Origin: Blasia pusilla
Lineage: Eukaryota
Assembly (NCBI GenBank): GCA_050084515.1
Contig: CM114271.1
Span: 47,740,001 to 47,804,000, forward strand
DNA length: 64,000 bases
Direction of reading: 5' to 3'
The notes beneath the pieces were generated by a model. It ran no database searches and was not told where the DNA came from. It saw only the letters and a list, made by a program, of their open reading frames with translations. Shown here in pieces: positions 10,361-64,000 of this stretch. The position numbers and the translations under genes are program-made. The first letter of the stretch is position 1. Each line of letters begins with the position of its first letter.

Positions 10361-10622
10361 CCGTCGCCATTCCTAGTCTAGTAGCTAGCTAGTTTAGGTT
10401 TTGAATTTGGTGGATCACACCATAGTCTTTCCTACTTGGACCCACGATCATGACTCGCTTCCTAGATCCTTGCCAGCATGAACTCCATAGACTTATATAT
10501 TTGTGACGTCATGTATCTGCGATATAATATTCATTTTATAATAGAGATTTTGGGACAAAAATTTACAACTACATTCGGGGAGAATTTGCAAGTCTCAAGA
10601 GCTGCACTACAACCATAACAAA

Positions 10623-36570: not shown

Positions 36571-36571
36571 A

Positions 36572-41900: not shown

Positions 41901-43269
41901 AAATAAATAGCACCTCAAATGTGCCACGAGCCCACACTGCAGCCAAGCACTCTCCCTTGTAGAAGTTGTACTTTGCCTATGCAATGTTAATTGATTGGCT
42001 TGCGTAAGCCACAACAAAATCCCTCTCCTCGTCATCCCTCTGAGTCAGCACTGCTCCTAGAGCCAACATGCTCCAATCCGTATGTAACGGGAATGGGTGA
42101 CCCCTAACCAATCTCTGTAAAATGGGTGAGGACGTCAACCCGTCCTTGAGCTCCTAAAATGCTTGCTCTTGATCATCTCCCCACAACCAAACCTGATGAA
42201 GTCTCGTCAACAAGATCAAAGACTTTGCGATCGCACTAAAACCCTTGACATACCGTCAATAGAAGTTCACGAGTCCCAGAAACGCTCGGACTTGACTCAC
42301 ATCTGTAGGGCATGGAATCTGCGCAATAGCCTCCACCTTTGTTTGGTGAACACCTAACCCACTCGGGTATATGGTGTGTCCCAAGTACTCAATCTGCTCC
42401 TAAAAGAATCTGCACTTTCCTGGATGTAACTTCAGTCCATGTAACTACAATCGCCGAAATATCTCCTCCAAGTGTTGCTCATGCTCCTCAATTGAGGGTT
42501 GTGTACAATGTTATAATGTTACGATGATAAGAATATTATCTATGTAACATCGTAAAAAATCCAAGCTAGCCAAAATCCTATCCATCACTCTTTGAAACTC
42601 CGCATGCGCGTTCCTCAACCCAAATGGTAAGAACCGCCACTGATACAAGCAATCTCTCCCAAACCAATCTATCCCCCAAAATGTTGTCTTCTCCCTGTCC
42701 TCCAACCTGATAAGAAGCAGATGATAGCCAACACGAAGATCTAAAGTACCGAAGATCTTTGCATGCCCTACCGCATCAAAGATCTCCTCAAGAGTAGGCA
42801 TGGCGTACCAATCTAACCTCGTCTGTCGGTTGATAGGACAATAATCTCCACACATCCGCCTATCCATCCAATTGCCATACATATCCTTCTTCGTCGGCAT
42901 GATTGTGGCGGATGCATACTCCCCATGTGACAACTCCACAAGTCTTGCCTCCAACAAGTCGTGACTCCTGCTTTGAATCAAGGCTCGCTCCATATGAGAA
43001 TACTTGTAGGGTCAACGAAAGATTGGAGTATCACTAGCCAACTCAATCCGTATTTCGGGACCCTTCAGCATACCCAAGTCTCTCATACTAAAGGCAAAAC
43101 AACTGACATGCCCTCTCAAAAACCTATGGACTCGCCGTGACTCTCCTCCTGTCAACTTAAGACCTATCACAAGCTCCCAAGTCTCACTCGGAGAGGACGT
43201 AACCTCTGACTTTGGTTGGTATGTAGCAACCCTAGCCACCTCCGCAACAACCACTCCACTCTGACGTCC

Positions 43270-43690
43270 AACACCATGTACGCCAAAGAACATGTTTGAC
43301 TCTCTTGCAAGTGTCGTACTACTCGCAGCATCTCCCAAAACATCCCTGACCTCGGATCTTGCAATCCAAACCCTTGTCCAAGTGATGAATGACCCTGACA
43401 TGGCCATCTAGCAATCACTAAATGAATGGTGCCAACTCTATCCAGATCCTACGCCCCCACCAAAGAGATGTCGGACGGGTTGTGTATGCTGATATCCCCA
43501 TACTGTAGATATCGATAACAACTCAGGATACCTCTGAACCAATCTTGCCATGTGACATATTGATACTCACTGCGGGGTCTCATCTCTCTCCACATAAAGA
43601 AATTGATGCACCTGTATGCTGCTGCACAACTGCAGCCAATCCTATGCAAATCCCTCCGAAAAGATCTAACACCCTAACACCCTCCTCTGG
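43270..43690 (-). pseudogene. C5 cytosine methyltransferase domain remnant (motifs I-V) in pol of family D copy 1
   Basis: GVRVLDLFGGICIGLAAV; FLYVERDE; IHLVIARWPCQGHSSLGQGFGLQDPRSGMFWEM. Motifs VI-X are lost relative to copy 2. Confidence 0.85.
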
Positions 43691-44106
43691 ACACTACCAC
43701 ACAATGGGTGTGGTATCCACTGGGGTCAACGTCTCCACTCTAGGAGCCCGATCGCCACCTGACTCTCGCTACTCCGGGATAAAGGCATGACTCCACGCCT
43801 GCCTCACGAGGTCGTCGGCACTCCTCTATAGTTCTCGAGTCGTACCCCACAATGGTGAAGAGGTCTCGCCAACATGGGAAAAGACACCCGCCATGGCCTG
43901 TCTCTTGGTGGGACTATCCACTACTGGGACATCCTCTGCAAGTGCGTTCCTCTCCAACAACTCTCTTGGCCAGCTAACACTACCTGTGAAAGCTGCCAAC
44001 GTGGTCACTAACTCGTCTCCTGATCGACCATCTTGTCCCGCAAACTGCACGGGTAATTGACTCATTCGCCCATCACCTGAACGCCATCCCTGGCGATAAG
44101 CAACGG

Positions 44107-45381
44107 TGTCGTATAGTAAAATCAACCAGTGTGTAAACTCCTTCGTCATTAAATGTTAGATAGAGTTTCATTAGTATTAAGTAAATTGGCTTAGAAAAAG
44201 GAGATTCTTATGTTTAAACCTCTTTATGGTGCCTCTTTTAACAACGGCCCAACTTTAGGAAAAGAAGTAATAAATAAAAGATGACTTTATAAAAGTAAAG
44301 TAGTTGCTTTAATGAAAAGCAAAAGTAGTCTTGGTTGGTGGCTAGGTTAGTTGGGGTAATTTGGAAAATATCATGTGGGTAAAAGAGGATATTTTGGAAG
44401 AGATAAGAGGAAATCTACTTATGTCAAAATGTGATTGGCTAAGCCTTGGGAGGAAGCCATGTGGCACAAGATAAGATAAGCTCTATTTCGTACTCTTGTG
44501 GATCCCCTTGTGAGTATATAAAGAGGAGGGACCTTCAAGGGTTCATCACCTTCTATTCCACATCTTGAGTCTCTCGTGTCTCTCTTGAGTGTATGGCTTT
44601 GGGATTGCTTGCTCTTCCAATGAGAGTGGATCACCCCTCTTGGGAGAGTAACTTGACTATGGTCTATTCTTTGAGAGATTTCTAGAGTGTGGTGTGTGTG
44701 TGTGTGGGGATGAGAGGTTTTTCACCGTAGAGGAGTTTGGTCATACTAAAATAGCGGAAGTTTTGACTTGTTACTTCCCCAATGAGAGTGGATTACCCCT
44801 CTTGGGAGAATAAGTCCGCCAAAACCCATTCTTGAGGAGAGTAGAGAATGTGTGTCAAGCATGGATAGGGGTGGAGCACGAGTTGTGCCGACTTTCCTTT
44901 CCTCAATCCTTACCATGTCAAGGTACTCTTTGTAGATAACCTTTGGTTCACTCACTATTTAGTTTATCACTTTGGGGAGGCGTTCATGAACCAGGTCATG
45001 CAATCTCCAACTCCGGTGATTCTTCCTATCGTCATATATGGAAGGACATGGGATTGTACTTTGTATGTCCTTATGTAGCGATCCATGGATGTCAATAGGC
45101 CTGGTCAAGTAGGGTTTCACACTAGTTGTGCTATCTTCCTCGTGTACAAACGTAAAATAGTTTATAGGATTTTATAGTTAGGAATTTTGGGGTCCGATGT
45201 TACGAAGAAGTGATCGCCTCGGCACTTCCATTTGTGATACACAATCGTGAGAGAATGGAGAGTGTACATCATAATTTTGTATTGAAAAAGGAGAACTTAT
45301 TAGAGAGTTCACCTTGCATCGAGCATCTACTGCTAAACTAGAAGGCCCGCCCTTGCTCGAAGAAAGATTCTCGACACGACA
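44107..45381 (+). repeat. 5' LTR of family A element
   Basis: TGTCGTATAG...GACACGACA, near-identical to 51331-52605. Confidence 0.95.
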
Positions 45382-45384
45382 AAA

Positions 45385-45400
45385 TGGTGCTTCCAGAGAG
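45385..45400 (+). promoter_or_regulatory. Primer binding site (non-Met; possibly tRNA-Thr)
   Basis: TGGTGCTTCCAGAGAG three bases after the LTR end. The tRNA identity is from recall of tRNA-Thr acceptor stems and has not been verified. Confidence 0.6.
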
Positions 45401-45445
45401 CTCTTTGAGGCGGTAGTTTGTGTTTGCAAGTTGAGTCTTATCAAG

Positions 45446-48400
45446 ATGACTACTTTTGGGAGGACTTCATCAAAGGGAATTGAGGGGGCTGAGGATCTTC
45501 TCCGAACTTTGACAACATTGTTGAGCCAACAAGGAGGAGTTCACATCGGAGAGCAAAGATTAACAAGGGCTCTCAAGCGATTGTGAAGAAGTTGGGAGAT
45601 TTGATGGCGGGAACATCACCAAGTATGTTCAACGAGCTAGTGCGTCTATGAGATGGAGGTAAATCGGCGTCATCCCGAAGGTGATATGGTGTCAAGTTTT
45701 GAGTTAGGTTGTAATACCGAGATCCGTAGTCAAGTAAAGAAGTTGAGAGCAGAAAATCCAACCTCATGGAAGGATCGATGCACATGATTCTTTGAAAGAG
45801 AATTCTTCGATGATGATGTGGATCGGGTGACTAAGAGGAGTTTTCTAGAATGGATAGACCAACGTCCAGGAAGGGAATGACTCCAAATGAGTTGTTGCGT
45901 GAGTTTGAGAAGCGGTTTTTCAGCTTTCTCCCGAAAGGGCAACTCTAGACTTGAGGAAAACCAAGTTATTCCTTGAGGCCAGATGAGAATTTGGAGGACA
46001 AGCTTTTCATAATGTTGGCGGACAAGAATGAAGAAGGAGGTGTCACACTAATTGGAAGAAAGTGGAAGAAGCTGTTGCTATCCTCACAAAGCAAAGTCGA
46101 AGTAGAGGTAGAACCACCAGTATTCAAGTCGGAGGTACCAATTTCAAATCCATTGCCTAAGCCCATGCCGAAAGAAAGCTTGAAGATTCTACCATTGATG
46201 AGTTGGTGAAAGGTTTGAGAGAGTTGAGAGTAGAAATGGTGAGCTTAAACTTGATAGGAATCCTAGTGTTGGTGCTCCTTCAACAAGTAAGAACTTTGTG
46301 AGAAGATGTATATGGTGTGATAGTGTTGAGCATCAACGTCGAGAATGTGAGGAATTTTCAGAAGCTCTTAGAAATGGAATAGTAAACTTCAAAGATGGGA
46401 AGATTCATTCACAGAGACTGGTATGCCGTTGAATACCAACTTTGGTAGAGGAGGTATGAAAGGATTAGTGAGAAGTCAAGTAGGAGTTGCCACTCGACAT
46501 TAGATTTCGACACCTTTGTAGTAAAAATTGAAGCGCCTATTGTATCTCAGTAGCTAAAAGTGAATCATAAGAATTTCCTCAAGAAGTTATGATACTGAAG
46601 AAGGGGCGAGACTATCCGTCATCCGATTTGGATGGGATGATCCAGTGGAAGTCTGGGTGTGTTAAAGCATACCTAGCACAAGAGAAACATGTGAGTTGGC
46701 AAGATGCTAGTGTGGAGGAGAAGAGAGACGCAGCGACAATGATGGTGTTGATCTTTGAGGAAGCTACAAGAAGAGCAAGGATCTTAAGAAGAAAAGGACA
46801 ACCGGAGGCGAATAAAACCATCAAGAGAAGAAGGACCTTCCACATTTGAATCTGTGAGGGATTCTCATGTCAAAGAAGCAGGACAAAGGAGAAGAATTGA
46901 GGTCTCCTCGAAGACCAAGGGTAAGACTCCTACATACAAGTCGATCTGACGATATCGAGACAAGCACCTAATTTAAAGGAGATTCTTGAGGAGAGGATTT
47001 TGGATGCGAAAATAGAGTTTTCTTTGAGGGAAGTCTTGGGCATAGCCAAACGTGACTTTCATGAGTTGATCATAGATGTGATTAAAAGGAAGAGGCAGAT
47101 GACTGCAGATATGGTGATGGTGAGAGCTTTGGATACTAACATCACAGAAGAAGAAGATGAAGAGCTTTGCCAAGTGTTTGGACAAAAGCTTGACTTACGA
47201 GGAAAAGAGGCGAGAGTAGGAGAAGCCTTGACAGAACAAGGTGAAGAAAGGCATAATGGTGGCCACTATTTCGATCATATTGGCGCGTGCAACGACGGAG
47301 GCTAGAGTTCGACTTGGCTCTCTTCAAGAGTCAGTTCTGCTCGTTGATCATGGTTCGGAGATCAACATCATGTCGCGAAGTGTGTACGACAAAGGGATGT
47401 GGCCAATTGATACAGGGCATGGATGGGTACTACGAGCGGCTAACAACCAAAAAGGTGAACTCTATGGTGCTTGTCCATCCGTCAAAACTCGTATCGGAGA
47501 TGTGTTGATTGAGCAAAATTTCTTTGTTTTAAGAATGGAGCTGCTTATCTTGTGATTCTTGGGCAACCTTACATCACAGAATCTAGAATGGAGACCAAAG
47601 TCATGGATGATGGGTCTCATTATGCCCGTATTAGAAGTCAGGATGGAACAAGATCGGTTCAATTCCTTCTTGCATTGAGTAGGTCATGAAAGGAATAGAG
47701 AGAAGTTGAGAGATGGTCCTATGAAGGTAGAGAAAGAGTTTTCGGATTTTTAGTTAGCACTCCTATAGAGCGGGAATATGGGGGTGCAGAGAAAAGAAAG
47801 AGTCTTCCGCTAGTAGAGGGGGAAGAATCATATATGTTTAGGTATGGGTTTTCTCAATGTTTTTCTTCGTGGTCTAGTAGATTCCAAATGATGAAAGAAA
47901 TGAATGAAAAGAAAAGACGTTTTATAAAAAAAAGGAGGGTTTGTTAAAATGTGAGGGTGTTCTATTAGATGAAGAGTTCATTAGTGGGATGTATGAAGAA
48001 GAGGGTTTTGGAGATAGTCTTGAAGAGGTGTTTACCCAGATGAACACCGATTCGCTGGATAGAAGTGTGATTGCAATTCACTCGCGTGAGTTGCAAGAAG
48101 AGATATCAAGGTTCATGGAAGGAGAAAATGAATATGAATCTACGGAGAAGGAAGCGGATGGGCACGGGTTTGAGTTTGATTTAACATCCCATGGAGGCAC
48201 AAGTGCACACAAAATACAAGACAAAGTGGCCCGGAAGGTGAAACCAATGGCTACTCAACTACCTAGAAGGATTGTGGGAGACAAGTAGAACGTGCATCAA
48301 TGGAGCCAAGTCTGCGGGATGTCAAGAAGATAGGACACAAGTTCACAGAAGAGACGCTAGATCGTCTGCAAATCGGAGGGGGTGAGTTTCTCACAGAAAT

Positions 48401-51230
48401 TGAAAGAAAATGCTTTCGGGAGATGTTAAGGAGACATGGTAAGGCTTTCTCTTTTACTACACAAGAAATTGGTTGTGTAGACACGAATGTGGTGGCACCG
48501 ATGGTAATTTTCACAGTTCCACATGTGCCTTGGGATTTGAAACCCATACCAGTACCACGAGCTATGATTCCCAAGCTGATTGAGTTATTGAAGGAGAAGA
48601 TGCAGATGGGTATCTTAGAGCCATCTATGGGGCCTTACTCGAGTCGATGGTTCACTGTGCCGAAGAAATCAAGAGCTCTCCGGTTCATTCAAGATATGCA
48701 ACGGAAAATAAGGTAACCATTCAAAATATGGGAGCAGGGCCTAGAATAGATGAAGTCGCAGAAGCTTTTGCAGCCCGTGCTATCTATTCTATAGGAGATT
48801 TGCACTCGGGATATGATCAATTTCAATTAGCTACAAAGAGTAGAGATATTACCACTATACGCACTCCACTTGGGCTTGTAAGAATGTGCACATTACCTCA
48901 AGGAGCAACAAATTCTGTCGCTCACATGCAGAGTGCAATGAATAAGATCTTGAGAGAGTTCATTCCTGAGAAAACCATTCCTTTTGTAGATGATATCCTA
49001 TAAAGGGTGTGCAATAGAAGATAGGTTTGAGAGGGTTGTGAAAGATGGCTGTAGAAAGTTTGTGTCTGATCATATTCGAGATGTGGATATGATCCTAACA
49101 AGACTAGAAGAGGTCAATCTTACTCTTTCTGGAGAAAAAGTGTAGCTTTGGGGTTCCTCAGATCGTGGTAGTGGGTCATCTTTGTGGAGAGTTTGGCTGA
49201 AAACCAAATCCAGCAAAAGTTGATATCATTGGGAGGATACGAGAATGCGAAAACGTCACCGAAGTGAGAAGGTTTTTAGGAGCTTGTGTGTTCTATCAAG
49301 TGTGGATTCCTCATTTGGGCCACATATCTGATCCTTTGTATGAGTTGTTGAGAAAGAAGAAGAAGTTCACTTGGGAGAAGAAGCAAAGAGCAGCAATGAT
49401 GCAGTTGAAGGAGGCATTGAAGTCGCCACCAGTTCTACGACAAATGAGCTACGAATGCGGATGACCTATTATCATCACAGTGGACACTAGCCCTATTGCT
49501 ATCGGATGGGCAGTTGGGTAGGATGACGCGGAAGGAAGAAGATTTGCGACAAGGTTTGGAGCTCGTACACTTACGGAACGACAGAGGAGGTACCCTCAAG
49601 TAAAGAGGGAGCTTTGGGGAGTTGTAACTGCAATGAAAGCTGAGAAGGAGTATCTTATGGGAGCCTATGTATTGCTTGAGGTTGATTGTCTACCTTTGTT
49701 AGGTATGATTGCGATTTGTACGACTCCAGATATAGCCATGCTACGTTGGATAGCCTACATTAGGTCCTTGAATCCACAATTGAAGCATATAGCTGGGAAA
49801 GAGAACTCAATAGCTGACATGTCTAGAGCTAGATTTAGTCAAGAAGAAGATATGGAGGCAACTGAGATAGATGAGGATGATGCACATGTGTGGCAAGTGT
49901 TATCTCAAGAACGAGGTGGCATAGAGGATGTTCTAGCCTTCAAAGAGGATTTGTATGAGGGCAGGTTAAAAGAAATTGGGCGCTATTTAAGCACTCTGCA
50001 AAGAGATGGAGGGTGGACAGAAAAGTTCTTCAAGGAGATTCGGCACAAGGCGTATGGCTATCTACTACAAGATGGATATCTTTGGAAAAGGCCAAAGAGG
50101 AAAGATGGAATGCCCTTGAGGGTGGTGGATGACAATGGGACAAAAATGGAAGTGCTCAAAGAATTCCACAATTCTTTATGGGCAGGTCACAGAGGTACTT
50201 GGGCAACTTTCACCAAGATAAAAGAGAGGTATTGGTGGAAAGGCCTATATAAGGATGTTGAGAGATATGTTGGGTCGTGTGTTGAATGTCAGTTTCAATA
50301 AAAAATCAGAGTGAGAGATGGACTTAAACCCACGTATCCTTTGTCTATTCATCATCAATGGGTTATAGATCTAGTTGCTATGCCACTAGGTCTTTGGGGA
50401 ATGCGTTACCTGGTCCTAGCACGAGAAGAGTTGTCCAACTTTGTAGAAGGGAGGGCTTTACGGGCTAAAACAACAGAGCCTATATGTCGTTTTATTCTAG
50501 AGGATATTGTTGCTAGATATGGGAGTGTCGGGAGAATCCGTGCAGATAGAGGTGAGTTGAATGCGGAGGAAGCACGAGAGTTCTTCAGGAGATATGGAGT
50601 CGATTGAGATTAACAACCTCCATGAACAGGAGGCAAACGGCAAGAGCGAAGGGGACATCCGCCAATCATTCAAGCATTGGTAAAGGCGTGTGGAGATCGT
50701 TATGATGATTGGCCTAGATTACTTCCATTTGCTTTATGGGCAGATAGAACCACTCACAGCACCGTTATAGGGTTCATGCCTCTGAGTTGACAGTCAAAAG
50801 CCGATAATGCCAAAGCAGAAGGAGATATACCCACTTTGATGGGTTTGTCGTGGGACGACGGGCTCAATAGGAAGAGCTCCTACAACTTCAAAAAAATGCA
50901 CTAGAGAGCGGGAAGAGGATATTGCGAAGCGTTAGTCGAGAATGAAGGAAGCAAGGTTGAAAAATAAGGAGCGCATCGACAAAACTCGCCGGCTTCGGAA
51001 GGAGCCGATAAGAGAAGGAGATTGGGTCTTGGTGCACGACAAGCGACCTTGACAACCAAAGATAGTACACCAAGAAGTTTGCAAGTCGTTGGTTTGGTCC
51101 ATATGTTATAGTCTTTGCTTTTGACAATGCCACTTACAAACTACGTGAACTAGATGGCACAATTCTCAAGCGCCCATTGCGGGGAAAAAGGGTCAAGATT
51201 TTCCGTGAGCGTGAAGGATTTCTTGATTTC
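45446..51230 (+). pseudogene. gag-protease and pol (RT, RNase H, integrase) of family A, with many 1-nt frameshifts
   Basis: Zn knuckle CIWCDSVEHQRREC; protease LLVDHGSEINIM; RT DLHSGYDQF, LPQGATNSVAHMQ, FVDDI; RNase H TVDTSPIAIG; integrase H..GH..C..C, WVIDLVAMP, IRADRGE. Confidence 0.9.
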
Positions 51231-51330
51231 GATTGAATGTGTCTACAGGCACAATATAAGTAAGTCTATAGCAAGAAGTCTTGATGTTTTTGGAGATCTG
51301 GGAGGATGTGCAGGGTTTGGAGGGGGTGAA

Positions 51331-52605
51331 TGTCGTATAGTAAAATCAACCAGTGTGTAAACTCCTTCGTCATTAAATGTTAGATAGAGTTTCATTAGTA
51401 TTAAGTAAATTGGCTTAGAAAAAGGAGATTCTTATGTTTAAACCTCTTTATGGTGCCTCTTTTATGCGGGCCCAACTTTAGGAAAAAGAGGTAATAAATA
51501 AAAGATGACTTTATAAAAGTAAAGTAGTTGCTTTAATGAAAAGCAAAAGTAGTCTTGGTTGGTGGCTAGGTTAGTTGGGGTAATTTGGAAAATATCATGT
51601 GGGTAAAAGAGGATATTTTGGAAGAGATAAGAGGAAATCTACTTGTGTCAAAATGTGATTGGCTAAGCCTTGGGAGGAAGCCATGTGGCACAAGATAAGA
51701 TAAGCTCTATTTCGTACTCTTGTGGATCCCTTGTGAGTATATAAAGAGGAGGGACCTTCAAGGGTTCATCACCTTCTATTCCACATCTTGAGTCTCTCGT
51801 GTCTCTCTTGAGTGTATGGCTTTGGGATTGCTTGCTCTTCCAATGAGAGTGGATCACCCCTCTTGGGAGAGTAACTTGACTATGGTCTATTCTTTGAGAG
51901 ATTTCTAGAGTGTGGTGTGTGTGTGTGTGGGGATGAGAGGTTTTTCACCGTAGAGGAGTTTGGTCATACTAAAATAGCGGAAGTTTTGACTTGTTACTTC
52001 CCCAATGAGAGTGGATTACCCCTCTTGGGAGAATAAGTCCGCCAAAACCCATTCTTGAGGAGAGTAGAGAATGTGTGTCAAGCATGGATAGGGGTGGAGC
52101 ACGAGTTGTGCCCGACTTTCCTTTCCTCAATCCTTACCATGTCAAGGTACTCTTTGTAGATAGGCACTGGTTCACTCACTATTTAGTTTATCACTTTGGG
52201 GAGGCGTTCATGAACCAGGTCATGCAATCTCCAACTCCGGTGATTCTTCCTATCGTCATATATGGAAGGACATGGGATTGTACTTTGTATGTCCTTATGT
52301 AGCGATCCATGGATGTCAATAGGCCTGGTCAAGTAGGGTTTCACACTAGTTGTGCTATCTTCCTCGTGTACAAACGTAAAATAGTTTATAGGGATTTTAT
52401 AGTTAGGAATTTTGGGGTCCGATGTTACGAAGAAGTGATCGCCTCGGCACTTCCATTTGTGATACCTGTCGTGAGAGAATGGAGAGTGTACATCATAATT
52501 TTGTATTGAAAAAGGAGAACTTATTAGAGAGTTCACCTTGCATCGACCGCATCTACCGTAGCTAGAAGGCCCGCCCTTGCTCGAAGAAAGATTCTCGACA
52601 CGACA
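51331..52605 (+). repeat. 3' LTR of family A element
   Basis: Direct repeat of 44107-45381, preceded by a polypurine tract. Confidence 0.95.
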
Positions 52606-54202
52606 ACGGTCTACTCCTAGAAGTCAAGGATAAATCCTTGGGGATATAACACTATACTCCCCACCAACACATTATACGACTCACCTGGTTTCGTATTCGC
52701 ATATGTGCGCACCATAGCACTATCCGTCGCATGCTTTGGCTGAACTCTGACAATTATCTCTTATCGAGTCATATACTACGTGGGTGACACACCCCCAATT
52801 GAGGTCTGTATGTGGAAGGGACAAGGCTCAATGTCGGCCTTCCGTAACCCCAACACTAAATTCGCCGCCTTCCCTAACATCAAGGGTTGCTCTCTCGAAT
52901 CAAGTAGGATGCACTACGAGTGGTATATTGTCCCCGTCGGACTAACCAAGTGAAATACTCTAGCTCTGTTATCCAATAACACTACTCCAGGTGTCACCAC
53001 AGCTGGCATATCTACCAACTTCACCGGGTAGTTGAGATTGACCCGCCAGAGAGGATCGATGGGTGGCAAGCCAGGGTTCCATAATCATTCACATTATCGG
53101 AGGCACTACACACACCATCGATGGTGCCTCGACGACCATCGGTGAATCCCATACTAGCAAGATCCTCATCCCGGTCAGGGTAAGAGGTAGAAGTTGGAGC
53201 CACACTAGCTGCTCGCGGCTGCGTGCCTTCCCTGAGCTGCATCATTGTCATGGCAGCAATCCTTTGCTCCAACTGATCGATGCGTGAGAGAAGTGCCAGC
53301 TCTGGTGCTCCTACTCCATCTCCTCTTGTTGGTGGTGGTCCTCTACCACCACGTCCACGAACAACTCCTCGACCTCCTCCAAGACGACCGCCCCGAGGCC
53401 CTCAACCTACCTCTGGACATGTCTCTTGTCATGTCTTTTAGGATAGATGAGTGAGATCTAGTAGAGCACCTTCATGAGTAGTGGAGGACATGCTTTGTAG
53501 GTAGAGGATGACCTGCTGCGGCCCCGGGAAACCTTAGAGAGCAGGTTTCCCCTTCGTTTCGGCTCATTTGGAACCATATTTAAGAACTTACTATTTTAGG
53601 TCAGTACCATTTTGAGTATATGATCAACTTTCTATTTTTGGTAAGTGGTCCTTGACCTCCTACATGAGGTCAAGAGCCAAGGAGGTGACTTTGGAGCATA
53701 GGTTACCATGGAGAGAGCTTGGGAGAGGGGAAGGGTATACGTCAAGGAGAGAGAGCTTGAGAGCTCATTCTCTCTTTGACGGCATGAGGCGGCAGAGTTA
53801 TGGTCTTACTCGCCTTATGTGTGTAATCCAAGCCTCACATTAGGAGAGTAGGTTTGGTTTGACATTGAGAGAGACATGTGAGAGTGCACACATTTGAGAG
53901 CTATGGTGTTGAGAGAGATTGGATCTTCATTTACAAAGAGAGAATGAGTGAGTGAGAGAGCTTCATGGGGGAGCTCGCTGGTTGCTTGATGTTTGGTGCA
54001 GGTTTGAGGGACAGTGTTCCCCGCTTCATGGCTCATGGGAGTGCTCACCGAAGCAAGAGCCGTGCAAGTTTGCTGTTTTGCTTTGCTGATTTTTTGTACG
54101 GGAGAGTGGCACGTGGAAGCACTGCCCAATTTTTTATAGGAATTGAGTATGGGGGCGGATTGCTCCATGCCGGTGCTCTCGAGAGCATCATGTAGCTTGC
54201 TG

Positions 54203-54489
54203 ATTTGTGTTCGCATAGGTTTTACATTTTTGTTGGGAGAAATCAATGCGGAAGCGCTGCACAATTTTGTGTAGGAGAAAGAGACATTGGGCTTTACGAC
54301 AGTTTAGGCATTGTCATAGATCATGGAATATTTGATCTAAAAATTTAAAAATATTTTGAATCAAATATTCCAGTAAAAAATGACAATGACTGTCGTAAAG
54401 CCCAATGTCTCTTTCTCCTACACAAAATTGTGCAGCGCTTCCGCATTGATTTCTCCCAACAAAAATGTAAAACCTATGCGAACACAAAT
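54203..54489. repeat. ~290-bp fold-back: ~100-bp perfect inverted arms (54203-54303 / 54389-54489) plus inner short stems
   Basis: ATTTGTGTTCGCATAGG...TTTACGACAGT is the reverse complement of ACTGTCGTAAA...CCTATGCGAACACAAAT. Inner pairs CATTGTCAT/ATGACAATG and TGGAATATTTGA/TCAAATATTCCA. Confidence 0.92.
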
Positions 54490-57416
54490 TTTAGGGTTAA
54501 AATGTTCAAACCCTTTACCAGCCGCCGTGCCCGCGGCAGCCGTCGCCATCATAGTCACTGTCAATGGTCCACCATCAACGGTCAACCATCACTATCAACG
54601 GTCCACGGTCGGCGCCACCGCCGCCTACCGCTGCTTAGAGCGGCGTTCGGCCGTTATCCACCCTTGGTTGCCATTGCCGCCATTACGGAGTGGAGGGTCT
54701 TCCACAACGACCATTGATTCTCTGACTTGCACTGCCGCCACCACGTACTTTGTTTTGGCCGCCACCAACATCGCAGTTTTTTCATCAACCAATGATGGCA
54801 AGTGACCTCGGGTTATGGTGTTTGAGTTCTTATTTTATGCTGCTATGTTGTGATTGGTAGCCGCTGGACGACGATTGAGTATTGTGCCGTGATGCCCGTA
54901 GCCGCAACGCACCGCCGATTGCCGCGTCGTGCCGCTCATGGCTGCACTGCATTGTCTCGATTGCGGAGCCGCTCCTTGAATTGCTGATTGAGGAGGGTAT
55001 CCCGCCAAGTGCCGCACCCCATTCTTGGGTGCCGTGTCGTTTGTAGCCGTTCCCTCGTGCCAATGCCGCATCGTACCGTTGAGCTTGCACCGCACATCGA
55101 GGAGGTTTGAGCAGCGTTAGTACAAGAGGAGTACGACTTACTGATCGGAGGAGTTATCTTCATGACCCAAGTTGGGGTCAAGATTTGCAGTTGCCGAGGA
55201 GCGACATCGACATTATTGTCAGGTTACCCACTCTAGTCTCTTACCCTACACGTGTGAGGGATTTCCGGGTATGGGGAAGTTATTTGGGATATTGGGTTTT
55301 GTGCTAATGCTACGAGCATCGATGATGTATGGGTTTAGGGGACATAGATGTGTATGGGATGTCCACAGTTGAGGAGGGTTTGTCGATGAGACGATAGATC
55401 AGCTGATTTGCCTCATCACACTGCTTGTTGCCGCACAACACACATCTCAGTGAGAGAGTGCAGATTGAGTTCCGCATGTTTATTTTGAGTCATTGAGGGA
55501 TTACTTTCGAGATTGAGAGTGATCGTGTGAGAGGGGCACAAGGGCCATTACGGCGTCCTTTCAAGATTTTGAGAGGCGAGGTAGTGGACATGAGAGTAGC
55601 TCATGAGGGTTTACCCAGAGTGGTGCGAGGTTTTGAGGATCTCCATGTGAGAGACCACCTTGATCTCCTTCCGTGTCATCTTTAGACGAGGGGGAATGTG
55701 TAGAGGAGTGTGTTAGGGATCCACCGTACACATTGAGTGGCCCTACGAGTTGGGCGTATGAGATGGAGGACCGGGGTAGAGGACCGCATAGGTTTTCGGG
55801 TGTTGTAGGCACCATAGAGCTACACAACTTCATTGCCGAGTTTAGGAGTTGGTGTGACTCATAGCGGGCTAGAAACTCTAGAGAGTTCAACACGTTTATA
55901 ACATGGAACAATATGTTTTAGCATTTAGAGGGGGCGCCCATGGACGATTACCATGAGTTCTCCCACAGACATGCCCAAAAGATTTAGGCATAGTGACTCT
56001 ACTATGACGCACACTATGTGTCATGGACGGAGCCGTTCCCAGATGAGGAGGAGGAGTCAAGAGAGGCTTCTTCCTCTTCCACTAGTGATATTTTAGGAGG
56101 GGTCACTCGCACTACAGCAGTGGCATCGTCTAGTCGGGTTCATCCTAAGTTCAACCCCGTCGTTGAGTTCTTCGCTGAGTTGAGGGCGAGCTACCACGGA
56201 TTACGGAAGGAGAAGTTACGGAGCATCCACGACTTCCAGAGGCGCCCGGGTGAGAGTTTGCGTGAGGCTTACACTCACTTGCGCCGGTTGATCAACGTCA
56301 CTCAAGGGGTGATAGAGGCTCAGGCTATCAAGTCATGGTAGACGATGCTAGACCGGACCCTGCGGACACGAGTGCAGGAGGGATGCTTCGTATGAACACC
56401 TCCCCTACGTTGAGAGATGTTCTTAGGACCACCAAGAACATTGAGCGCAACATGGCGGAGGAGAGCGTAGCCACCATGGGTTCGGAGCGAGAGCAGTCAC
56501 GATTGTTTGCACCACCAGTGCAGCAACGTGGACTCCAAGATATGTCGACTGTGGCACCACAAGCTCAAGGAGGATATCGGAAGACCATGCCGCAGAGACC
56601 CGCGCCTTCATATGCGGCTCAGCAATAGCTGCCTACGATTACTTGTTGGTCATGTGGTGGGGCCCATCATCAGCGCGATTGCACTCATCAGGGTTATGGA
56701 CATGTGCCTCAACATGGCGGAGGAGATGGTGTTGTACCAAAAGGTTATCAGTGTGACAATTGTCAGAGGTATGATCACACATGGACTAGGTGTTTCAGTT
56801 TATATCCTAAGTTACATCCGGATGGAGGGCCAGAGAGAGCACCAGAGTAAGAAGTCGGTCTCGTGGGCTAGAGATCGTGCACCAGGTGGTCCCGTTGGGG
56901 GATGAGGAGCTGGAGTTTCCCGACAAGGTCATGGAGCTGCCCATGAAGGAGGTAAAGTCCCACCACCTAGACGCATCAAAGGAGACACCGAGCGTGAGGC
57001 TGGGATGGCTGCTCAGATACACCAACTACAGGAGCAGATTGCCGCTATGGCATTGAGGTAACTCCATGTCGGATCCGTGGTATGGACATCATATGGAGCA
57101 GCCAGAGATATGGAGGATCCTGGTTGGATGTGTGGGATTGACTAGATGGAGGTCGTCGTAGTTATGACGCGTGAAGCAGCCGTAGAGTTGGATTCACAGC
57201 GAGGGAAGCCAGAAAACATACTAGGCTTCCTCTGTCTTTCACGTTGTCCAATGCGATGAGGACCCCATCGATGGGTCCTGATCATAGTTCTTGGAGAGTT
57301 GATGATGTTGTTGGAGTGCAGGCATGGAGGGAAATGGGAGAAGCGAGTGTGACGACTCCTATTGCTGATGCTCATGAGGGGCATGTGTCGAGCATGTTGT
57401 TGGGGGCGGCCACCGT

Positions 57417-58696
57417 TGTCGTGTCGAGAGTCTTTCTTCGAGTAAGGGCAGGCCTTCTAGCTGCGATAGACGCGGTCGATGCAAGATAAACTCTTTGAGA
57501 AGATCTCCTTTTTCAATATAAAATTATTATGTATATTCTCCATTCTCTCACGACATGTATCACAAATGGAAGTGCCGAGGCGATCACTTCTTCGTAACAT
57601 CGGACCCTGAAATTCCTAACTATAAAATCCCTATAAACTATTTTATGCTTATATACGAGGAAGATAGCACAACTAGTATTAAACCCTACTTGAGGAGGCC
57701 TATTGACGTCCATGAATTGCTATATAAGAACATACAAAGTACAAACCCATGTCCTTCCATATGTGATGATAGGAAGGATCACCCGAGTTGGAGATTGAAT
57801 AACCTGGTTCTTGAACGCCTCCCCAAAGTGATAAGCTAAATAGCGAGTGAACCAGTACCTATCTACAAAGAGTATCTTGACATGATATGGATTAAGGAAA
57901 GGAAATTCGGGCACAACTCGTGCTCCACCCCTATCCATGTTTGACAGACATTCTCTACTCTCCTCAAGAACGGGTTTTGGTGTAGTTATTCTCCCAAGAA
58001 GGGTAATCCACTCTCATTGGAGAAGTAACAAGCCAAAATATTCACTATTTTAGTATGACTAAACTTCTCTAAGATGACAAACCTCTCATCTCCACACACA
58101 CACACATCACACTCTAAAAACCTCTCAAAGAATAGACCATGGTCAAGTTACTCTCCCAAGAGGGGTGACGCACTCTCATTGGAAGAGCAAGCAATCCCAA
58201 AGTCATACACTTAAGAGTGACACAAAGACTCAAGATATGGAATAGAAGGTGATGAACCCTTGAAGGTCCCTCCTCTTTATATATTCACAAGAGACCCACA
58301 AGAGTACGAAATAGAGCTAATCTTATCTTATGCCACACGGCTTCCTCTCAAGGCTTAGCCAATCACATTTTGAAACAATTAGATTTCTTCTTATCTCTTC
58401 CAAAATATCCTCTTTTACCCACTTGATATTTTCCAAATTACCCCAACTAACTTAGCCACCAACCTAGCCTACTTTCGCTTTTCATTAAAACACCAACCTC
58501 ACTACTTTACTTTGATAAAGTCATCTTTTATTTATTACCTCTTTTCTAAAGTTGGGCCCGCATAAAAGAGGCACCATAAAGAGGTTTAAACATGGAAATT
58601 TCCTTTTTCTAAGCTAATTTACTTAATACCAATAAAACTCTATCTAAGACTTAACAAGGAAGGAGTTTACACACTGGCTGATTTTACTATACGACA
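57417..58696 (-). mobile_element. Solo LTR of family A nested in family D copy 2
   Basis: TGTCGTGTCG...CTATACGACA, homologous to 9091-10360. Flanks are CCGT (57413-57416) and TCGT (58697-58700), a TSD with one C>T change. Confidence 0.92.
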
Positions 58697-59759
58697 TCGT
58701 TTTGTATTGCGCTTCTTTATTTTTTGCTTCCGATGTTATGACGTTGGGAGGTATGCCCGCCGAGGTTTTCCGGCTAGCTGCTAGGCTATGTGAGAGTGGA
58801 GTTGGAGTTCCTGCATCACGTTCAGAGGTGATTGCAAAGGAGGTGATAGACCTGCCCTTGGAGCTGATGCTTTGGCCGTCCATGTTAGATTCATGGCACG
58901 ATGCAGCTGTTAGGATGGCAAAGATGCCCACTAGATCCACGATAGAGCGTGCCATGGCTTCTCGTGGTATTGTGTTGTTGCATAAACAAGGAGAGGTCTT
59001 CCAATTGGTGAGTCCCGGAGGTAGAGCTTTTAGTCCGCAACACGCCTTGTTGGATTCAGGAGCGCAATCCTTGATGTTGGGGAAAGCATCATTCAGAGGA
59101 TTGGGCTTCACTAGAGCCGATGTGGAGCGTTGTCCATTCCGGATACAAACATCCTTAGGTGGAGCAAGTACCACACAATATATCACCCGACAGGAGGTCA
59201 TGGTGAGGATTTGCATGGGACATCCTATAGATGAGTCCGTGGTGCGAGCCAAGGCGATAGTGACTGATGTAGAGTCCTACGATGTCTTGGTTGGTGGAGC
59301 ACTGTTATATCCGATGGGGTTTTTCGTCGATTACTAGGAGGAGTCAACGTCCTACAAACTAGGATGGCACTCAGGTGATGGGCGCTTTAGCTCATTACTC
59401 GTTCGATTCACAGGTGCAGTGATCGAGCGGCGGCCAGGAGAGATGGCGACCTTAGCAACATTTAGCAGTGCCATCACTTGGCCTAGTGATTTGATTGAGG
59501 GACATGTCCATGCAGAGGATACTCCCGTTCCTATAATTTCTATGGAGAGGAGTGTCATGGTAGCTGCATCAGTCTATGGAGGAGAGGTGCCGCTTTGGGG
59601 TTCGACCAAGTAGCTTCAACGCTTAGCCACTGAGCATGTGCAGACCGCGCGGAGCGAGACGTTTGCACTAGAGTGTGATGGGTTGTAGAAACCCCATGTA
59701 TGCAGGAGTGCTGCTATGACCCCTTTGGACACCACCCCGATTGTGTGGTGCATCCCGGA

Positions 59760-60720
59760 AGAGGGTATTTGGGTGTTGGATCTCTTTGGAGGGATTAGCA
59801 TTGGGTTAGCTCTTGTTTTGCACGCTAGAGTGTGCGTGCAGAAGTACCTGTATGTGGAGATTGATGATGTTACCAGGCGCGCTTCACTTCACTATATGGC
59901 ACAGTTACGCCTCTGTTTTCTTGACTTGTTGTCTACGTTCGCCACTCAGGCTTACCAGAGTTCCCTACCGAGGGACATTTCATTGTTGGGGGCGTAGGAC
60001 TTGGAGCGGGTAGGGACCATAGACTTGGTCATTGCAGGTTGCCGTGTCATGGCCAATCGAGTGTTGGACGAGGTAGAGGGTTAGCTAACACTCAGTCCAG
60101 GTTGTTTTGGGAGATGATGTGGATCTTGCAACATTTACACGAGAATCAGCCTCGTTCTCCAACATACATTTTGGAGAATGTGCCAATTTTGGGTGATTCG
60201 AGGTCCCGCGTGGTGATGAGTGCACATCAGGTGCACGCATGGATTGGCCCGACAGTGTTCTTAGATGTGACGAGTGTAGGTTCTAGAGCACACCGCCCGC
60301 GTCTTTGGTAGACCAACTTGGTACCACATGAGGTGTTGCGGAGGGCTTATGCAAGAGTGGAGTGTCCCTCCGATTTGTTGGTGGATTCTATATTAGATCC
60401 GGGCCGTCGATCATAGGCAGTGAGGCTAGATGATCAATCGCCGTTGATTGTGGTCAACAAGAATGGCAGGCTTTCTCACATTGGTGAGTTTTCCCGCTTC
60501 CTATGCATTTAAGGAGGCCGAACCTGGCTTGGTTTGGGATGACCAAGTATAGAGGTTGGTGCAGCCCAACGCCGATGAGCGAGAGCGAGAGATGGAATTC
60601 CCCATGGAAGTGACGGCAGTATCGTCACCATTAGAGGCATCAAGATGTCATGTCTTGGGTCAGGTGATGGACCTGAAGTGCTTGATATGGATTTTCAGCT
60701 TAGGAGTAGCTGAGCAGCGT
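59760..60720 (+). pseudogene. DNMT3-like C5 cytosine DNA methyltransferase domain within pol
   Basis: Motif I VLDLFGGISIG; II YVEID; IV IDLVIAG[W]PCHGQS (1-nt deletion at ~60040); VI YILENV; VIII GSRAHRPRLW*TNL; IX-X EREREMEFP..T..RCHVLGQVMD. The motifs are in canonical order. Confidence 0.9.
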
Positions 60721-63700
60721 TGTTTGAGGATGCGACAGATCATAATTTTGCGTTGGTAAGCCCCATGCCTACGAAGACGGTTGAGGCAGTGGCTAGGGGC
60801 GAGACCCGAGGATATCGACATACCAAGGTGATCGAGAGAGACACCCTTGGACTTCTTGGGATTTTTTGCAAGTTTGCTAGGAGATGATAGCCACAACATC
60901 GAGGGTGGTTCCGAGTACTACACGTGGAGATGAGAGTTCTATTATCCGAGACGGGGTTGCACCATAGCAACCACCGACATCCGCGCCAGAGAGTCCTATT
61001 GTAGTCACGATGGAAACTTGGGAGCTAGATATGGGCCCTAAGTTAAAAGGAGGAGAGTGGCGTCAGTTCCTTAGGAGTTATAGGAGCTATTTTGGATTTA
61101 GTATGCATGATTTAGGTACGCTCAAGGGTCAAGGGATCCACATTGAGTTGTCGAGTGACACACCGATCTTCCGACAACCCTACAGGTATAGTGACATGGA
61201 GAGGGCTTTGATTCAAAGTAGGAGCCAGGACTTGGTTGGAGCAGGACTAGTGGAGATATCGTATGGAGAGTATGCATTTGCCTCTGTCATGCCTGCCAAG
61301 AAGGATGTGCATGGCAACTGGATGGATAGGCGGATGTGTGGAGATTACCGACCTATCAATTAGCAAACAAACTCTAATAGGTATGCCCACCCCTGAGGAG
61401 ATCTTTGATGCGATTGGGCATGCAAAGGTCTTCAATTCATTGGATTTGCGAGTCGAATACCATCAGCTACCTATCAGATTGGAGGACAGGAAGAAGATGG
61501 CATTTTGGGGCATTGATCCTCATGGGAAGGATTGTTTGCACCAGTGGCGGTTCTTACCAGTCGTGTTAAAGAAAGCCCCGATTGAGTTTTAGAGGGTCAT
61601 GGACGGGATCTTGGTAGGTTTGGATTTTACTAGGTGTTATATTGATGACATCGCAGTCTTTAGCGCCACGATTAAGGAGCATGAGCGACATCTAGAGGAG
61701 GTATTTCGACGATTGTAGTTACATGGGCTGAAGCTACATCTAGGCAAGTGCAAGTTCTTCTATGACCAGATTGAGTACTTGGGTCATACGATATACCCAG
61801 GGGACCTTGGTGTGCAACAGACAAAGTTAGAGGCTATTTCAAGCATTCCACACCTTACACATGTGAGTCAAGTTCGTGCATTCATGGGATTGGCGAACTT
61901 CTATCGATGGTACGTCAAGCGTTTCACTTTGATTGCGAAGCCGCTAACCTTGCTGACCAAAGTGGATCAGGAGTGGCATTGACGGGATGAGCAGGAGAGA
62001 GCATTTGAGATGCTCAAAGATAGATTGATGTCTATGCCCATATGGAGGAGACCGATCAGGGGGCATCCTTTCTAGCTGCATACGGATTGGAGCATGTTGG
62101 GGCTTGGAGCCATGCTCACCCAGCATGACGATGATGGTAGAGAGTTTGTGGTGGCTTATGCTAGTCGCTCGAACAACGCTACAGAGGTGAAGTATAGCTC
62201 GTATGAGGATGAGTGCTTGGCTACAGTGTGGGTTGTCGCACATTTCAGATGTTATCTATTCGGAAATCCCTTTACCATCATTACTGATCATCAGCCACTT
62301 AAGTGGTTGATGGAGTTGACAAGCAAACAGGGAAGCTTGCGAGGTGGGTTCTTTTGTTGTAGGAGTATGACTTCCAAGGTGGTGCATAGACCTGGGACGC
62401 TCAACCAAGATGCAGATGGTTTGATTCGTAACCCATGCCCGAGTCAACGAGATGCGATTGGAGCTTGTTGGCATGGTGAGAGTGATGAGGAGTTGGTGCC
62501 AAGATGGTATGCGTGAGCCTATTTCGGTTTGTTGGCTATGGAGAGCCAGATTTCTGAGACTTCGATGGCAAGGTCTGATGGTGAGTCCTTAGATCCAGAG
62601 GCCGGTGAGGAGACGACAGGTGGTTGAGACATTCACGACGATGGAGTGGTCTTGGAGTACCTGCATACTGGCAGCGTCGCGAGCACATTGGGTGCTAGAG
62701 AGTGGGATCGGATCCTATAGCAAGCCAGACAGTTCCGGTGGGAGGGCACATATGTGTTGCGAGTGTGGGAGGATGGTAGAGTGCGTGTAGTGCCTCATCC
62801 TTCACAGAGAGCACATTTGGTGCATCATGCCCACGAGGAGTTGGGTCATTTTGGAGTGAAGCAAACGTACAACTTGCTCCACATTCAGTATTGGTGGCGA
62901 GGCATGTAGAGTGACATTCAGCAATTTGTTGCCAGATGCATGGTGTATGATCGAGTCCGAGAATCGTTCAATGCTCTGACTCTATAGTTGCAGCCACTTC
63001 CGATCATGGGTTCACGTTATAGATGGAGTTTGGATTTTACAAGACCTTTGCCTTTGACGGAGCGCCATAGTTGCTATGTGTTGGTGATGGTCGAGCACTT
63101 CTCGAAGTGGATAGAGTTGGTTGCATTGCCTGACAAAGCGAGTGAGGGAGTAGCGTATGCCTTCCTAGATTGAGTGTTGAGTCATTATGGACCACCAATT
63201 GAGGTGTAGACAGACCAGGGTACAGAGTTCCGCGAGGAGTTTTAGGCCTTGTGTGATCAAACAGTGATTGACCACCGCACTACTTCGCGAGATCATCCTA
63301 AGGCGGATGGACTAGCGGAGCGGGTTGTGCACACGATAAAGGAGGACTATGCAAGTATGGCTTGTAGAGAGGTCACTTAGGAGATTGGGACCTTCAGTTG
63401 CCGTGGTTGGCGATGGGATACAGATTGAGAAGGCACGCATCCTTAGCGTCTTTCTCACCGTACTTGTTGCTTTATGGCCAAGACCCAGATTTACCTACGG
63501 CTATTCCTTGAGATGTTGGTGAGGTGTTGAACCTTCATGAGCCTGATGTATGGATGCGAGCATTTTCTCAGAGGGCTGAGTTATTTTGGAGAGTGATGCC
63601 CATGGCGTTTGAGAACTTGGCGATTAAGCAACATTGGGATACGTTGAGGTATGCGACTATTCGAGCCGGTGATTATCGACCTACTATCCGGAGATTTCAT

Positions 63701-63928
63701 CAAGGAGACTATGTCTACTAGCAGTAGACGGCACCCATGACATTGGATGTGACTGCAGGGCGCACCATCTTGAGAGTGCGTGAGGTTTTGCCATCCAGTG
63801 TTCTCTTATTGGAGGGACGCGATGGTATGGTTTGGAAGGACCATGTGCGTAACTCTGCGCCACGTCATCTTCCGAACATTAACGGTATAGTTGATCCAAG
63901 CTTAGCAATAGTTCCTGCACGCTTGCGG

Positions 63929-64000
63929 TGTATGTTGTGCGGTTCCGCCCGTGGTGCACTCACTATGCTAGTCTGTGATGGGTGTTCGAGAGGATGGCAT
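63929..64000 (+). other. PHD finger (N-terminal half) at the integrase C-terminus
   Basis: CMLCGSARGALTMLVCDGCSRGWH. The remainder is visible in copy 1 (WHMSYLTPPLDVVP..W*.C..C at ~40125-40200). Confidence 0.85.

Follow-up and report, generated by a model that had tools for sequence, protein, structure and literature searches.

The window analysed here is a 64,000-nucleotide stretch of DNA from Blasia pusilla (GenBank assembly GCA_050084515.1, contig CM114271.1, positions 47,740,001 to 47,804,000 of the forward strand) that contains two decayed copies of one retroelement. Judged by its predicted domains, this is a long terminal repeat (LTR) retroelement of the Ty3/gypsy order, with the arrangement gag, protease (PR), Dnmt3-like DNA methyltransferase (DNMT), reverse transcriptase (RT), RNase H (RH), integrase (IN) and PHD finger. 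The last 72 bases of the window are, almost certainly, the N-terminal half of a canonical C4HC3 PHD finger (PF00628), the last domain of the polyprotein. The features assigned to the two copies are given below in window coordinates, each with the evidence on which it was assigned.

55763–56817, plus strand: copy 2, gag-like region, decayed, with eight stops (tblastn of residues 1–380 of the relative P0191)
58900–59334, plus strand: copy 2, aspartic protease region with an LLDSGAQ motif (open reading frame (ORF); 45.5% identical over 145 residues to copy 1 at 53033–52620; maps to P0191)
59689–60750, plus strand: copy 2, decayed Dnmt3-like cytosine-5 methyltransferase that precedes RT (PF00145 scoring 22 bits, its cut-off; tblastn with P0191 and with P0204; homology to the P0059 DNMT)
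60977–62513, plus strand: copy 2, reverse transcriptase and RNase H, decayed (PF17917/PF17919; tblastn of P0158)
62721–63344, plus strand: copy 2, integrase zinc-binding (H2C2) domain and catalytic core, decayed, with a frameshift near 63340 (PF17921, PF00665; tblastn in frame 3, then frame 2)
63338–63928, plus strand: copy 2, integrase C-terminal region (an SH3-like barrel in relatives) and linker, in the frame of the finger, with four in-frame stops (tblastn of P0158 residues 846–1068; family profile at 63512–63718 and 63728–64000; AlphaFold2 model of P0002)
63929–64000, plus strand: copy 2, first half of the PHD finger, C1–C4 and H5 (motif, Pfam, shuffle test; alignment through residue 91 in most listed relatives)
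40128–40261, minus strand: copy 1, whole PHD finger with two frameshifts, one TGA and Tyr at ligand 6 (three-frame reading, family profile)
40262–44110, minus strand: copy 1, decayed block of DNMT, RT, RNase H and integrase that shares about 72% DNA identity with copy 2 (blastn, Pfam, tblastn)
52620–53033, minus strand: copy 1, protease region, on the far side of a nested element called element X (tblastn: P0191 residues 628–769 here, residues 772–952 at 44110–43550)

The element and the finger at the window end

Copy 2 (59717–63987) and copy 1 (43728–40202, minus strand) are about 72% identical in DNA by blastn. Pfam searches on stop-to-stop pieces of both copies recovered a C-5 DNA methylase, RT (in copy 1 only), RNase H, the integrase zinc-binding domain and the integrase core, in that order; RVT_1 was not detected by Pfam in copy 2 at E ≤ 0.01. 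The pol order of the Ty3/gypsy order (PR, RT, RNase H, IN), with H2C2 and DDE core domains, was found through these matches and through colinear tblastn alignments with intact relatives. On copy 2, P0191 (gag-PR-DNMT, 1280 residues) is colinear at 55763–60750, P0158 (RT-RH-IN-PHD, 1099 residues) at 60977–64000, and P0204 from the DNMT through the finger. The stretch from RT to PHD is broken by 19 stops over three frame segments in copy 2 and by 16 over six in copy 1. In the two copies CpG is depleted (observed/expected 0.61–0.69) and TpG/CpA is in excess (1.27–1.32), a combination that fits long-term cytosine methylation. Sensitive blastn between 38000–40200 and 52611–57411 found no repeat pair bounding either copy, the 3' end of copy 2 being outside the window.

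Translation of 63929–64000 on the plus strand gives CMLCGSARGALTMLVCDGCSRGWH. This contains the pattern C-x2-C-x11-C-x2-C-x4-H that the first-pass annotation had placed after the integrase of copy 2, and the pattern is indeed there, in the same frame as the integrase C-terminal region. One open frame of 91 codons (63728–64000) holds 67 residues of that region together with the finger and runs off the window end, so that the finger is truncated after the fifth of its eight zinc ligands (C1–C4 and H5 are present). Searched alone against PF00628, the copy 2 fragment scored 15.9 bits (E 0.013, profile positions 1–24 of 47), below the gathering cut-off of 24 bits, because only half a finger is present; P0007, a 74% identical relative, scored 35.9 bits. 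The Pfam search that had been proposed for this site was thus negative by the cut-off for the fragment itself and positive for its relatives.

The sub-threshold score of the isolated fragment, and a copy 1 finger that is readable only over three frames, would both suit a Cys/His pattern that had arisen by chance in decayed DNA or that belonged to a neighbouring host exon and not to the retroelement. The probability of such an origin is negligible. When the whole window is translated in six frames, the more permissive pattern C-x2-C-x7-20-C-x2-C-x4-5-H turns up just once, at the copy 2 finger site, against a mean of 0.01 in 100 block-wise shuffles, one of which reached a single match. It stands at the same place in two 72%-identical copies, and hundreds of relatives have the finger in frame after integrase. 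The existence of intact single-ORF relatives refutes an origin by chance or from a host exon.

Copy 1 extends beyond the point at which copy 2 is cut off. On the minus strand its finger runs from a first Cys codon at 40261–40259 to a last Cys codon at 40130–40128, and the stop codon of pol, a TAG at 40124–40122, follows one codon past that Cys. The finger is spread over three reading frames, which implies two frameshifts: frame A ends in RCILCRYARG, frame B reads AATILVCDGCS, and frame C reads WWHMSYLTPPLDVVPTRQ followed by a stop, MCLRCV and a second stop. Across the three frames seven of the eight ligands are present. A profile of the relatives matched the three pieces colinearly (profile positions 57–124, 120–137 and 139–154), the last two being weak alone (E 0.14 and 0.17). 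The continuation LTPPL..VP...W.C..C that had been reported for copy 1 is therefore present, with amendments: it is assembled across three frames only, ligand 6 is Tyr (TAT) and not Cys, and the supposed Trp is a TGA stop in the DNA, at the position of the Trp that precedes ligand 7 by two residues in the relatives.

Intact relatives and the DNMT module

A full-library HMMER search with the 91-residue frame of the window as query returned 584 proteins at E ≤ 1e-3, 141 of them at E ≤ 1e-10, and in most of the 150 matches listed the alignment reaches query residue 91, inside the finger. PF00628 scored above its cut-off in all 32 HMMER relatives scanned, always after rve where an integrase was present. 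It was likewise found in each of the 9 ORFs with an integrase that came from 21 metagenome loci (14 ORFs were scanned there, and the remaining 5 were gag-type or gave no match), in 5 of 6 further relatives, the exception being P0213 with its garbled C-terminus, and in both of the long relatives P0228 and P0170. The metagenome loci had been obtained by a scan with P0003, which returned only relatives of the RT-RH-DNMT-IN-PHD subclade, at 38–55% identity; close ones were not returned. The full C4HC3 pattern was present in 92 of the 171 relatives fetched and in 136 of 257 in an enlarged set, many of the others being short pieces. The ORF ends 1–15 residues past the finger in 54 of those 136, among the closest relatives, as it does in copy 1. 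In live relatives the finger lies about 20–25 residues past the SH3-like C-terminal barrel of the integrase, and in the subclade of the window it ends the ORF.

Two of these relatives carry all of the pertinent domains in one frame. P0204 (1516 residues) has the DNMT at 82–140, then RT, RH and IN, and the PHD finger at 1470–1513; P0228 (2811 residues) has the DNMT at 1380–1481, the same three domains, and the finger at 2765–2808. Both end three residues after the finger and both have the domain order of the window element. The first-pass annotation had proposed a PHD finger as the last domain after integrase, and a histone reader joined to a DNA-methylation writer in one polyprotein; both proposals are borne out by the domain content of intact relatives, the first by PF00628 matches in frame with integrase and the second by the single-frame ORFs P0204 and P0228. 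A finger out of frame with integrase, or a loss of the remaining Cys ligands, had been named as grounds for rejection. Neither was found, the intact relatives having the finger in frame with all eight ligands. The functional side of the proposal, that the coupling could steer integration or methylation, is a reasonable hypothesis.

The same annotation placed the finger "in place of a chromodomain". The PHD finger does occupy the integrase C-terminus, and no Chromo match was found by Pfam in the window fragments or in any relative scanned; the replacement itself is an analogy of position. By the domain criterion, the element is not classed as a chromovirus.

The description of the element as DNMT-bearing was upheld by PF00145 matches in both copies and by the closest intact DNMT, which is most like DNMT3A/3B. 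This DNMT, from P0172, is 55% identical to the fragment in the window (the closest intact DNMT relatives span 52–57%), and its best PDB matches are the catalytic domains of DNMT3A/3B, with E 1.7e-7 for DNMT3A and 0.036 for the best bacterial enzyme. A cytosine-5 DNMT of Dnmt3 affinity therefore lies inside the polyprotein ORF, PF00145 being found in both copies and the DNMT sharing an ORF with RT, IN and PHD in P0204 and P0228. Pfam scans of the DNMT-bearing ORFs found no second PHD/ADD and no PWWP domain. The window DNMT is also homologous to that of more distant relatives such as P0059. Its position differs within the family: it precedes RT in the window, P0204 and P0228, and P0059, P0098, P0213 and metagenome loci L002–L015 have it between RNase H and integrase. 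In the two placements the module, of about 340 residues, is homologous (28–32% identity, E 5e-31 to 1e-37), and the RT-RH and IN-PHD blocks are colinear at about 40% identity. From these alignments the difference in placement is read as domain permutation, or shuffling, within one lineage.

Relatives of a chlorophyte-type subclade (P0101, P0029, P0044, P0128, P0140 and the ORFs of L002–L015) have a tail of about 300 residues past the finger that is not present in the subclade of the window. No Pfam family matches these tails. An AlphaFold2 model of the tail, with a mean predicted local distance difference test score (pLDDT) of 71.8, shows a small beta-barrel and an alpha/beta domain. The latter aligns to class-I S-adenosylmethionine-dependent methyltransferases (METTL5, KsgA/Erm, M.TaqI and type I HsdM) with Z 8–9 over 125–150 residues, a middling score. 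By eye, we take the DPWxG and SPWF blocks of the tail to resemble methyltransferase motifs I and IV.

Kind of finger and proposed role

The fingers of the family share the motif C-x2-C-x(7-14)-[ML]-L-L-C-D-x-C-x2-G-[WYF]-H-x2-C-L-x-P-P-L-x2-V-P-x-G-x-W-x-C-P-x-C, in which the Trp two residues before C7 (ligand 7) is present in 91 of 92 and, in copy 2, would lie past the end of the window. Among PDB sequences the family profile gave its best matches to CHD4, KMT2C/D, KDM5/Lid, PHF12, ATXR5, WSTF, DPF3, KAT6A, BAZ2A/B, PHF21A, UHRF1 and AIRE. The fold was assessed on the relative P0002, not on the sequence of the window itself. In its AlphaFold2 model an SH3-like barrel is followed by a disordered linker and the PHD finger, which has a pLDDT of 82–88. 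The modelled finger superposes on those of DPF2/3, UHRF1, ATXR5, BAZ2A/B and BHC80 with a root-mean-square deviation (rmsd) of 0.6–1.5 Å over 47–53 residues, and structural alignments to histone-tail-binding fingers show 27–52% identity at an rmsd of about 1 Å. According to their entry titles, the structural matches BAZ2A, UHRF1, ORC1b and ATXR5 were deposited with unmodified histone H3 tails.

When barrel and PHD finger of P0002 were submitted together, Foldseek ranks 1–10 were like the Tudor-PHD cassettes of PHF1/MTF2 and UHRF1 (E 1e-5 to 6e-4). With an rmsd of about 11 Å, the predicted resemblance is one of domain order, not of superposition.

Some PHD fingers read H3 trimethylated at K4 (H3K4me3), and these have a cage Trp two residues before the zinc-binding His. 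In fingers that read H3 unmethylated at K4, an acidic loop between C2 and C3 holds R2 and K4 of the H3 tail. At the cage position, the family has Gly in 88 of 92 fingers, Ala in three and Leu in one; the residue is Gly in the window and is aromatic in none of the 92. The unmodified-H3 complexes among the structural matches, together with this Gly, favour a reader of H3 that lacks K4 trimethylation. The contrary specificity, under which the finger would read H3K4me3 and direct insertions to active promoters, is very unlikely. It can call on UHRF1, one of the structural matches, which has also been crystallised with an H3K4me3 peptide; it has against it the family-wide lack of an aromatic residue at the cage position. 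The known H3K4me3 readers ING, BPTF, TAF3 and PHF8 also contributed no entry of their type to the 60 best PDB sequence matches listed.

The C2–C3 loop is less uniform. It is net negative in 61 of the 92 fingers, and its charge ranges from −5 to +3; the 22 positive loops include those of the closest relatives of the window. Such variation is what might be expected if the finger had only a structural part, as a zinc module that keeps the integrase C-terminus stable or brings about its multimerisation, and bound no chromatin ligand. That possibility is judged quite unlikely, given the close similarity in sequence and fold to histone-tail-binding fingers and the conservation of the strand before C3, where Met 133 is invariant in alignment A1.

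The role considered most likely is one of tethering. The finger would bind a histone tail, most likely the N-terminus of H3 without K4 trimethylation, and the intasome would thereby be tethered to nucleosomes. Integration would in this way be biased toward non-promoter chromatin, comparable to the effect of the chromodomain in chromoviruses, and the DNMT would act separately as the element's own writer of 5-methylcytosine. The explanation as a whole, finger identity and tethering together, is considered somewhat probable; for the tethering of integrase to chromatin through a histone tail, as by the chromovirus chromodomain, the chances may be about even. Several points weigh against it. The mechanism is drawn by analogy. 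Both window copies are dead, so that no function can be exercised at this locus now, and the copy 2 fragment falls below the Pfam cut-off (15.9 against 24 bits), as is expected for half a domain. The mean pLDDT of the P0002 model as a whole is a moderate 64.4. The C2–C3 loop is basic in the subclade of the window (+1 in the window, +1 to +3 in the closest relatives), which makes the ligand less certain there. The KMT2C/D and DPF fingers, among the top sequence matches, have other ligands, and similarity therefore does not fix specificity. Lastly, any coupling of reader and writer must contend with the more than 1200 residues that separate DNMT from PHD in P0204 and P0228, and protease processing may separate the two.

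That distance bears most directly on the alternative that the finger serves the DNMT instead, in the manner of an ADD domain, licensing methylation at H3K4-unmethylated chromatin, or that it recruits a non-histone host factor, with no targeting of integration in either case. The Dnmt3-like character of the captured DNMT (P0172 against DNMT3A, E 1.7e-7; best bacterial enzyme, 0.036) agrees with such a role, as does the lack of a second PHD/ADD or a PWWP domain in Pfam scans of the DNMT-bearing ORFs. In the chlorophyte-type subclade the DNMT stands directly before IN-PHD, so that a DNMT-IN-PHD protein is conceivable, and the basic loop in the subclade of the window leaves the ligand of its finger open. 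In that subclade, however, RT, RH and IN intervene between DNMT and PHD, and the finger stays beside integrase wherever the DNMT sits. It is present even in P0003, P0065 and P0207, in which Pfam finds no DNMT. The wide separation in the polyprotein makes ADD-like coupling the weaker alternative, and service to the DNMT or to a host factor is regarded as improbable.

A broader proposal, which combines elements of both, is that a Gypsy lineage of green plants and algae (chlorophytes, Coleochaete, Marchantia, Sphagnum) carries a self-contained epigenetic kit, made up of a captured Dnmt3-type writer that would have lost its ADD and PWWP readers and a PHD finger fused to integrase. The finger would select H3K4-unmethylated chromatin for integration and would also replace the lost ADD in licensing the methyltransferase; the element would thus enter silent chromatin and methylate itself or its surroundings, and chlorophyte members would add a further barrel and a tail with a class-I methyltransferase fold. 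This proposal is speculative and is put forward as doubtful.

If the finger does guide integrase, this family would have arrived independently at chromatin-guided integration for a second time, by means of a PHD finger and not a chromodomain, in an element that also encodes a cytosine methyltransferase of the de novo type. The intact relatives in public data make the questions of histone binding and target sites directly testable.

Related systems, host range and neighbouring elements

Chromoviruses such as MAGGY are alike in having a reader domain after the integrase C-terminal barrel at the end of pol, and presumed chromatin-targeted integration, for which other papers cite Gao et al. 2008; their reader is a chromodomain, and here it is a zinc-binding PHD finger, the comparison being one of domain content and not of RT/IN phylogeny. 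KnitGypsy-Dnmt3 of Klebsormidium nitens (de Mendoza et al. 2018, PMC5890265) is likewise a streptophyte Gypsy element with a Dnmt3-type DNMT in its polyprotein, and the accessible text describes that DNMT as intronless and inside the Gypsy polyprotein. The position of the DNMT before RT in the window element is noted as a difference from KnitGypsy-Dnmt3 as described there. The term "PHD" is absent from the PMC5890265 text and three supplement files, Fig. 4c and the main supplementary PDF lying outside that coverage. With the window element, the range of Gypsy elements that bear a Dnmt3 reaches beyond the charophyte Klebsormidium into bryophyte-type genomes, and one IN-PHD backbone with two DNMT positions documents domain shuffling inside the lineage.

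Accessory PHD fingers occur in other green-lineage LTR elements, among them Chlamydomonas REM1 (Perez-Alegre 2005, through papers that cite it) and Gypsy-7a_cRei (Craig et al. 2022, PMC9940879). The excerpted text of the latter lists the PHD of Gypsy-7a_cRei between RNase H and integrase, with no DNMT, whereas in the window element it follows integrase. The portion of PMC8557442 consulted calls PHD "a common accessory domain" of Chlamydomonas transposons. EpiLTRs (bioRxiv 10.64898/2026.05.21.726589), as far as the preprint was available, also combine a histone reader with one or more DNA methyltransferases in single LTR elements. They differ in that those of Cymbomonas and Euglena join a chromodomain to an adenine methyltransferase and to a DNMT placed as sister to the DNMT4 clade, where the present element has a PHD finger and a Dnmt3-like DNMT; "PHD" appears in that preprint in the funding text only.

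According to the consulted part of a survey across eukaryotes, PHD and Chromo domains are often found together with the RT and integrase of retrotransposons (Grau-Bove et al., bioRxiv 10.1101/2021.11.30.470311). That part names cnidarian PYGO-like PHD fusions and no green-lineage IN-PHD-DNMT family. A Gypsy-integrase-like DNA transposon with a C-terminal PHD is described in the accessible portion of PMC2836005. PHD fingers in retrotransposons, Gypsy elements with a Dnmt3 and LTR elements that join a reader to a writer have thus all been published already. A Gypsy element with both a PHD finger and a Dnmt3-type DNMT was not found in the literature searched, which did not extend to the REM1 paper or to Fig. 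4c and the main supplement of de Mendoza 2018; the parts of PMC11982613 and PMC6338049 that were seen hold nothing on one.

Host fingers of BAZ2A/B, KDM5 PHD1, CHD4, ATXR5, UHRF1, PHF21A and AIRE have the same C4HC3 spacing and the motif xLLCDxCxxG[WYF]HxxCLxPPLxxVPxGxWxCPxC. The finger of the window differs from them in being fused to a retroelement integrase and, in its subclade, in having a basic and not an acidic C2–C3 loop.

Among the closest intact DNMT relatives (52–57% identity) are proteins named from Sphagnum jensenii and S. troendelagicum. A Marchantia polymorpha protein belongs to the IN-PHD relatives, as does P0205, a complete ORF from a Coleochaete scutata transcriptome, and more distant ones come from the chlorophytes Haematococcus lacustris and Tetrabaena socialis. 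By these similarities the IN-PHD lineage is placed as spread across green plants and algae, with the closest named relatives of the window element in Sphagnum and Marchantia; on similarity alone, a moss-like host genome would be the most likely for the window.

Reads were checked in runs that bear the species label of the best-matching DNA runs, which share only 0.20–0.25 of sampled words with the window; no RNA run was listed as a match in the sequencing-run index. Three RNA-seq runs placed 51, 61 and 54 reads on copy 2 at 95–99% likeness, most with the first mate on the minus strand. The fit was partial for 39 of the 51, 51 of the 61 and 44 of the 54 RNA reads, and for 922 of 1225 DNA reads (95–99% likeness). 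With this partial fit and likeness the signal comes from related copies and not from copy 2 itself, which suggests that related copies are transcribed at a low level. RNA reads of the three runs show G>A at 63981 and 63988 (9 of 12, 11 of 13 and 7 of 9), against at most 2 of 159 DNA reads of the same label, and those RNA reads diverge from the window just upstream. This is most simply explained if the transcripts come from one particular paralogous copy whose finger region looks intact.

The window itself is unremarkable, being rich in transposons and holding two nested copies that are CpG-depleted and dead. Two further features interrupt the copies.

44102–52610, plus strand: the younger Gypsy element X, nested in antisense orientation within copy 1, where it parts the protease from the DNMT (LTRs, blastn, tblastn)
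57412–58701, minus strand: solo LTR of the element X family, lying nested between the gag and protease regions of copy 2 (identity to the element X LTRs about 90%; interrupts the P0191 alignment between residues 380 and 564)

Element X has 1.28-kb LTRs that are 98% identical (44102–45382 and 51331–52610), with TG..CA ends (TGTCG...CGACA), a polypurine tract GGAGGGGG, and RT, RNase H and integrase on the plus strand. It was inserted in copy 1 exactly between the positions of residues 769 and 772 of P0191. A repeat of about 1.29 kb that adjoins both copies had been considered as the 5' LTR of the DNMT element; this was rejected, the repeat being the LTR of the younger plus-strand Gypsy element, of whose family a solo LTR sits at a different place in copy 2. 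A second solo LTR of the element X family lies at 9087–10367, and the two solo LTRs are about 90–96% identical to the element X LTRs. Both insertions of this family into the DNMT element are antisense to it. ACGG-like tetramers flank all four LTR copies of the element X family; they may represent target-site duplications or a target preference, or may belong to the LTR.

A third, different Gypsy-type element at 13271–15273 (minus strand) has a well-preserved RT (109 bits), RNase H and integrase. Pfam detected no chromodomain or PHD in this element and no Chromo in element X. A large set of inverted repeats, 72–90% identical (19622–22857 against 31526–38904), brackets about 9 kb (roughly 22.9–31.5 kb) with a higher G+C content (0.50–0.53) and little CpG depletion (observed/expected 0.93). 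In the gap between the head-to-head copies of the DNMT element, positions 54203–54489 form a near-perfect palindrome of 287 bp that is 90% self-complementary.

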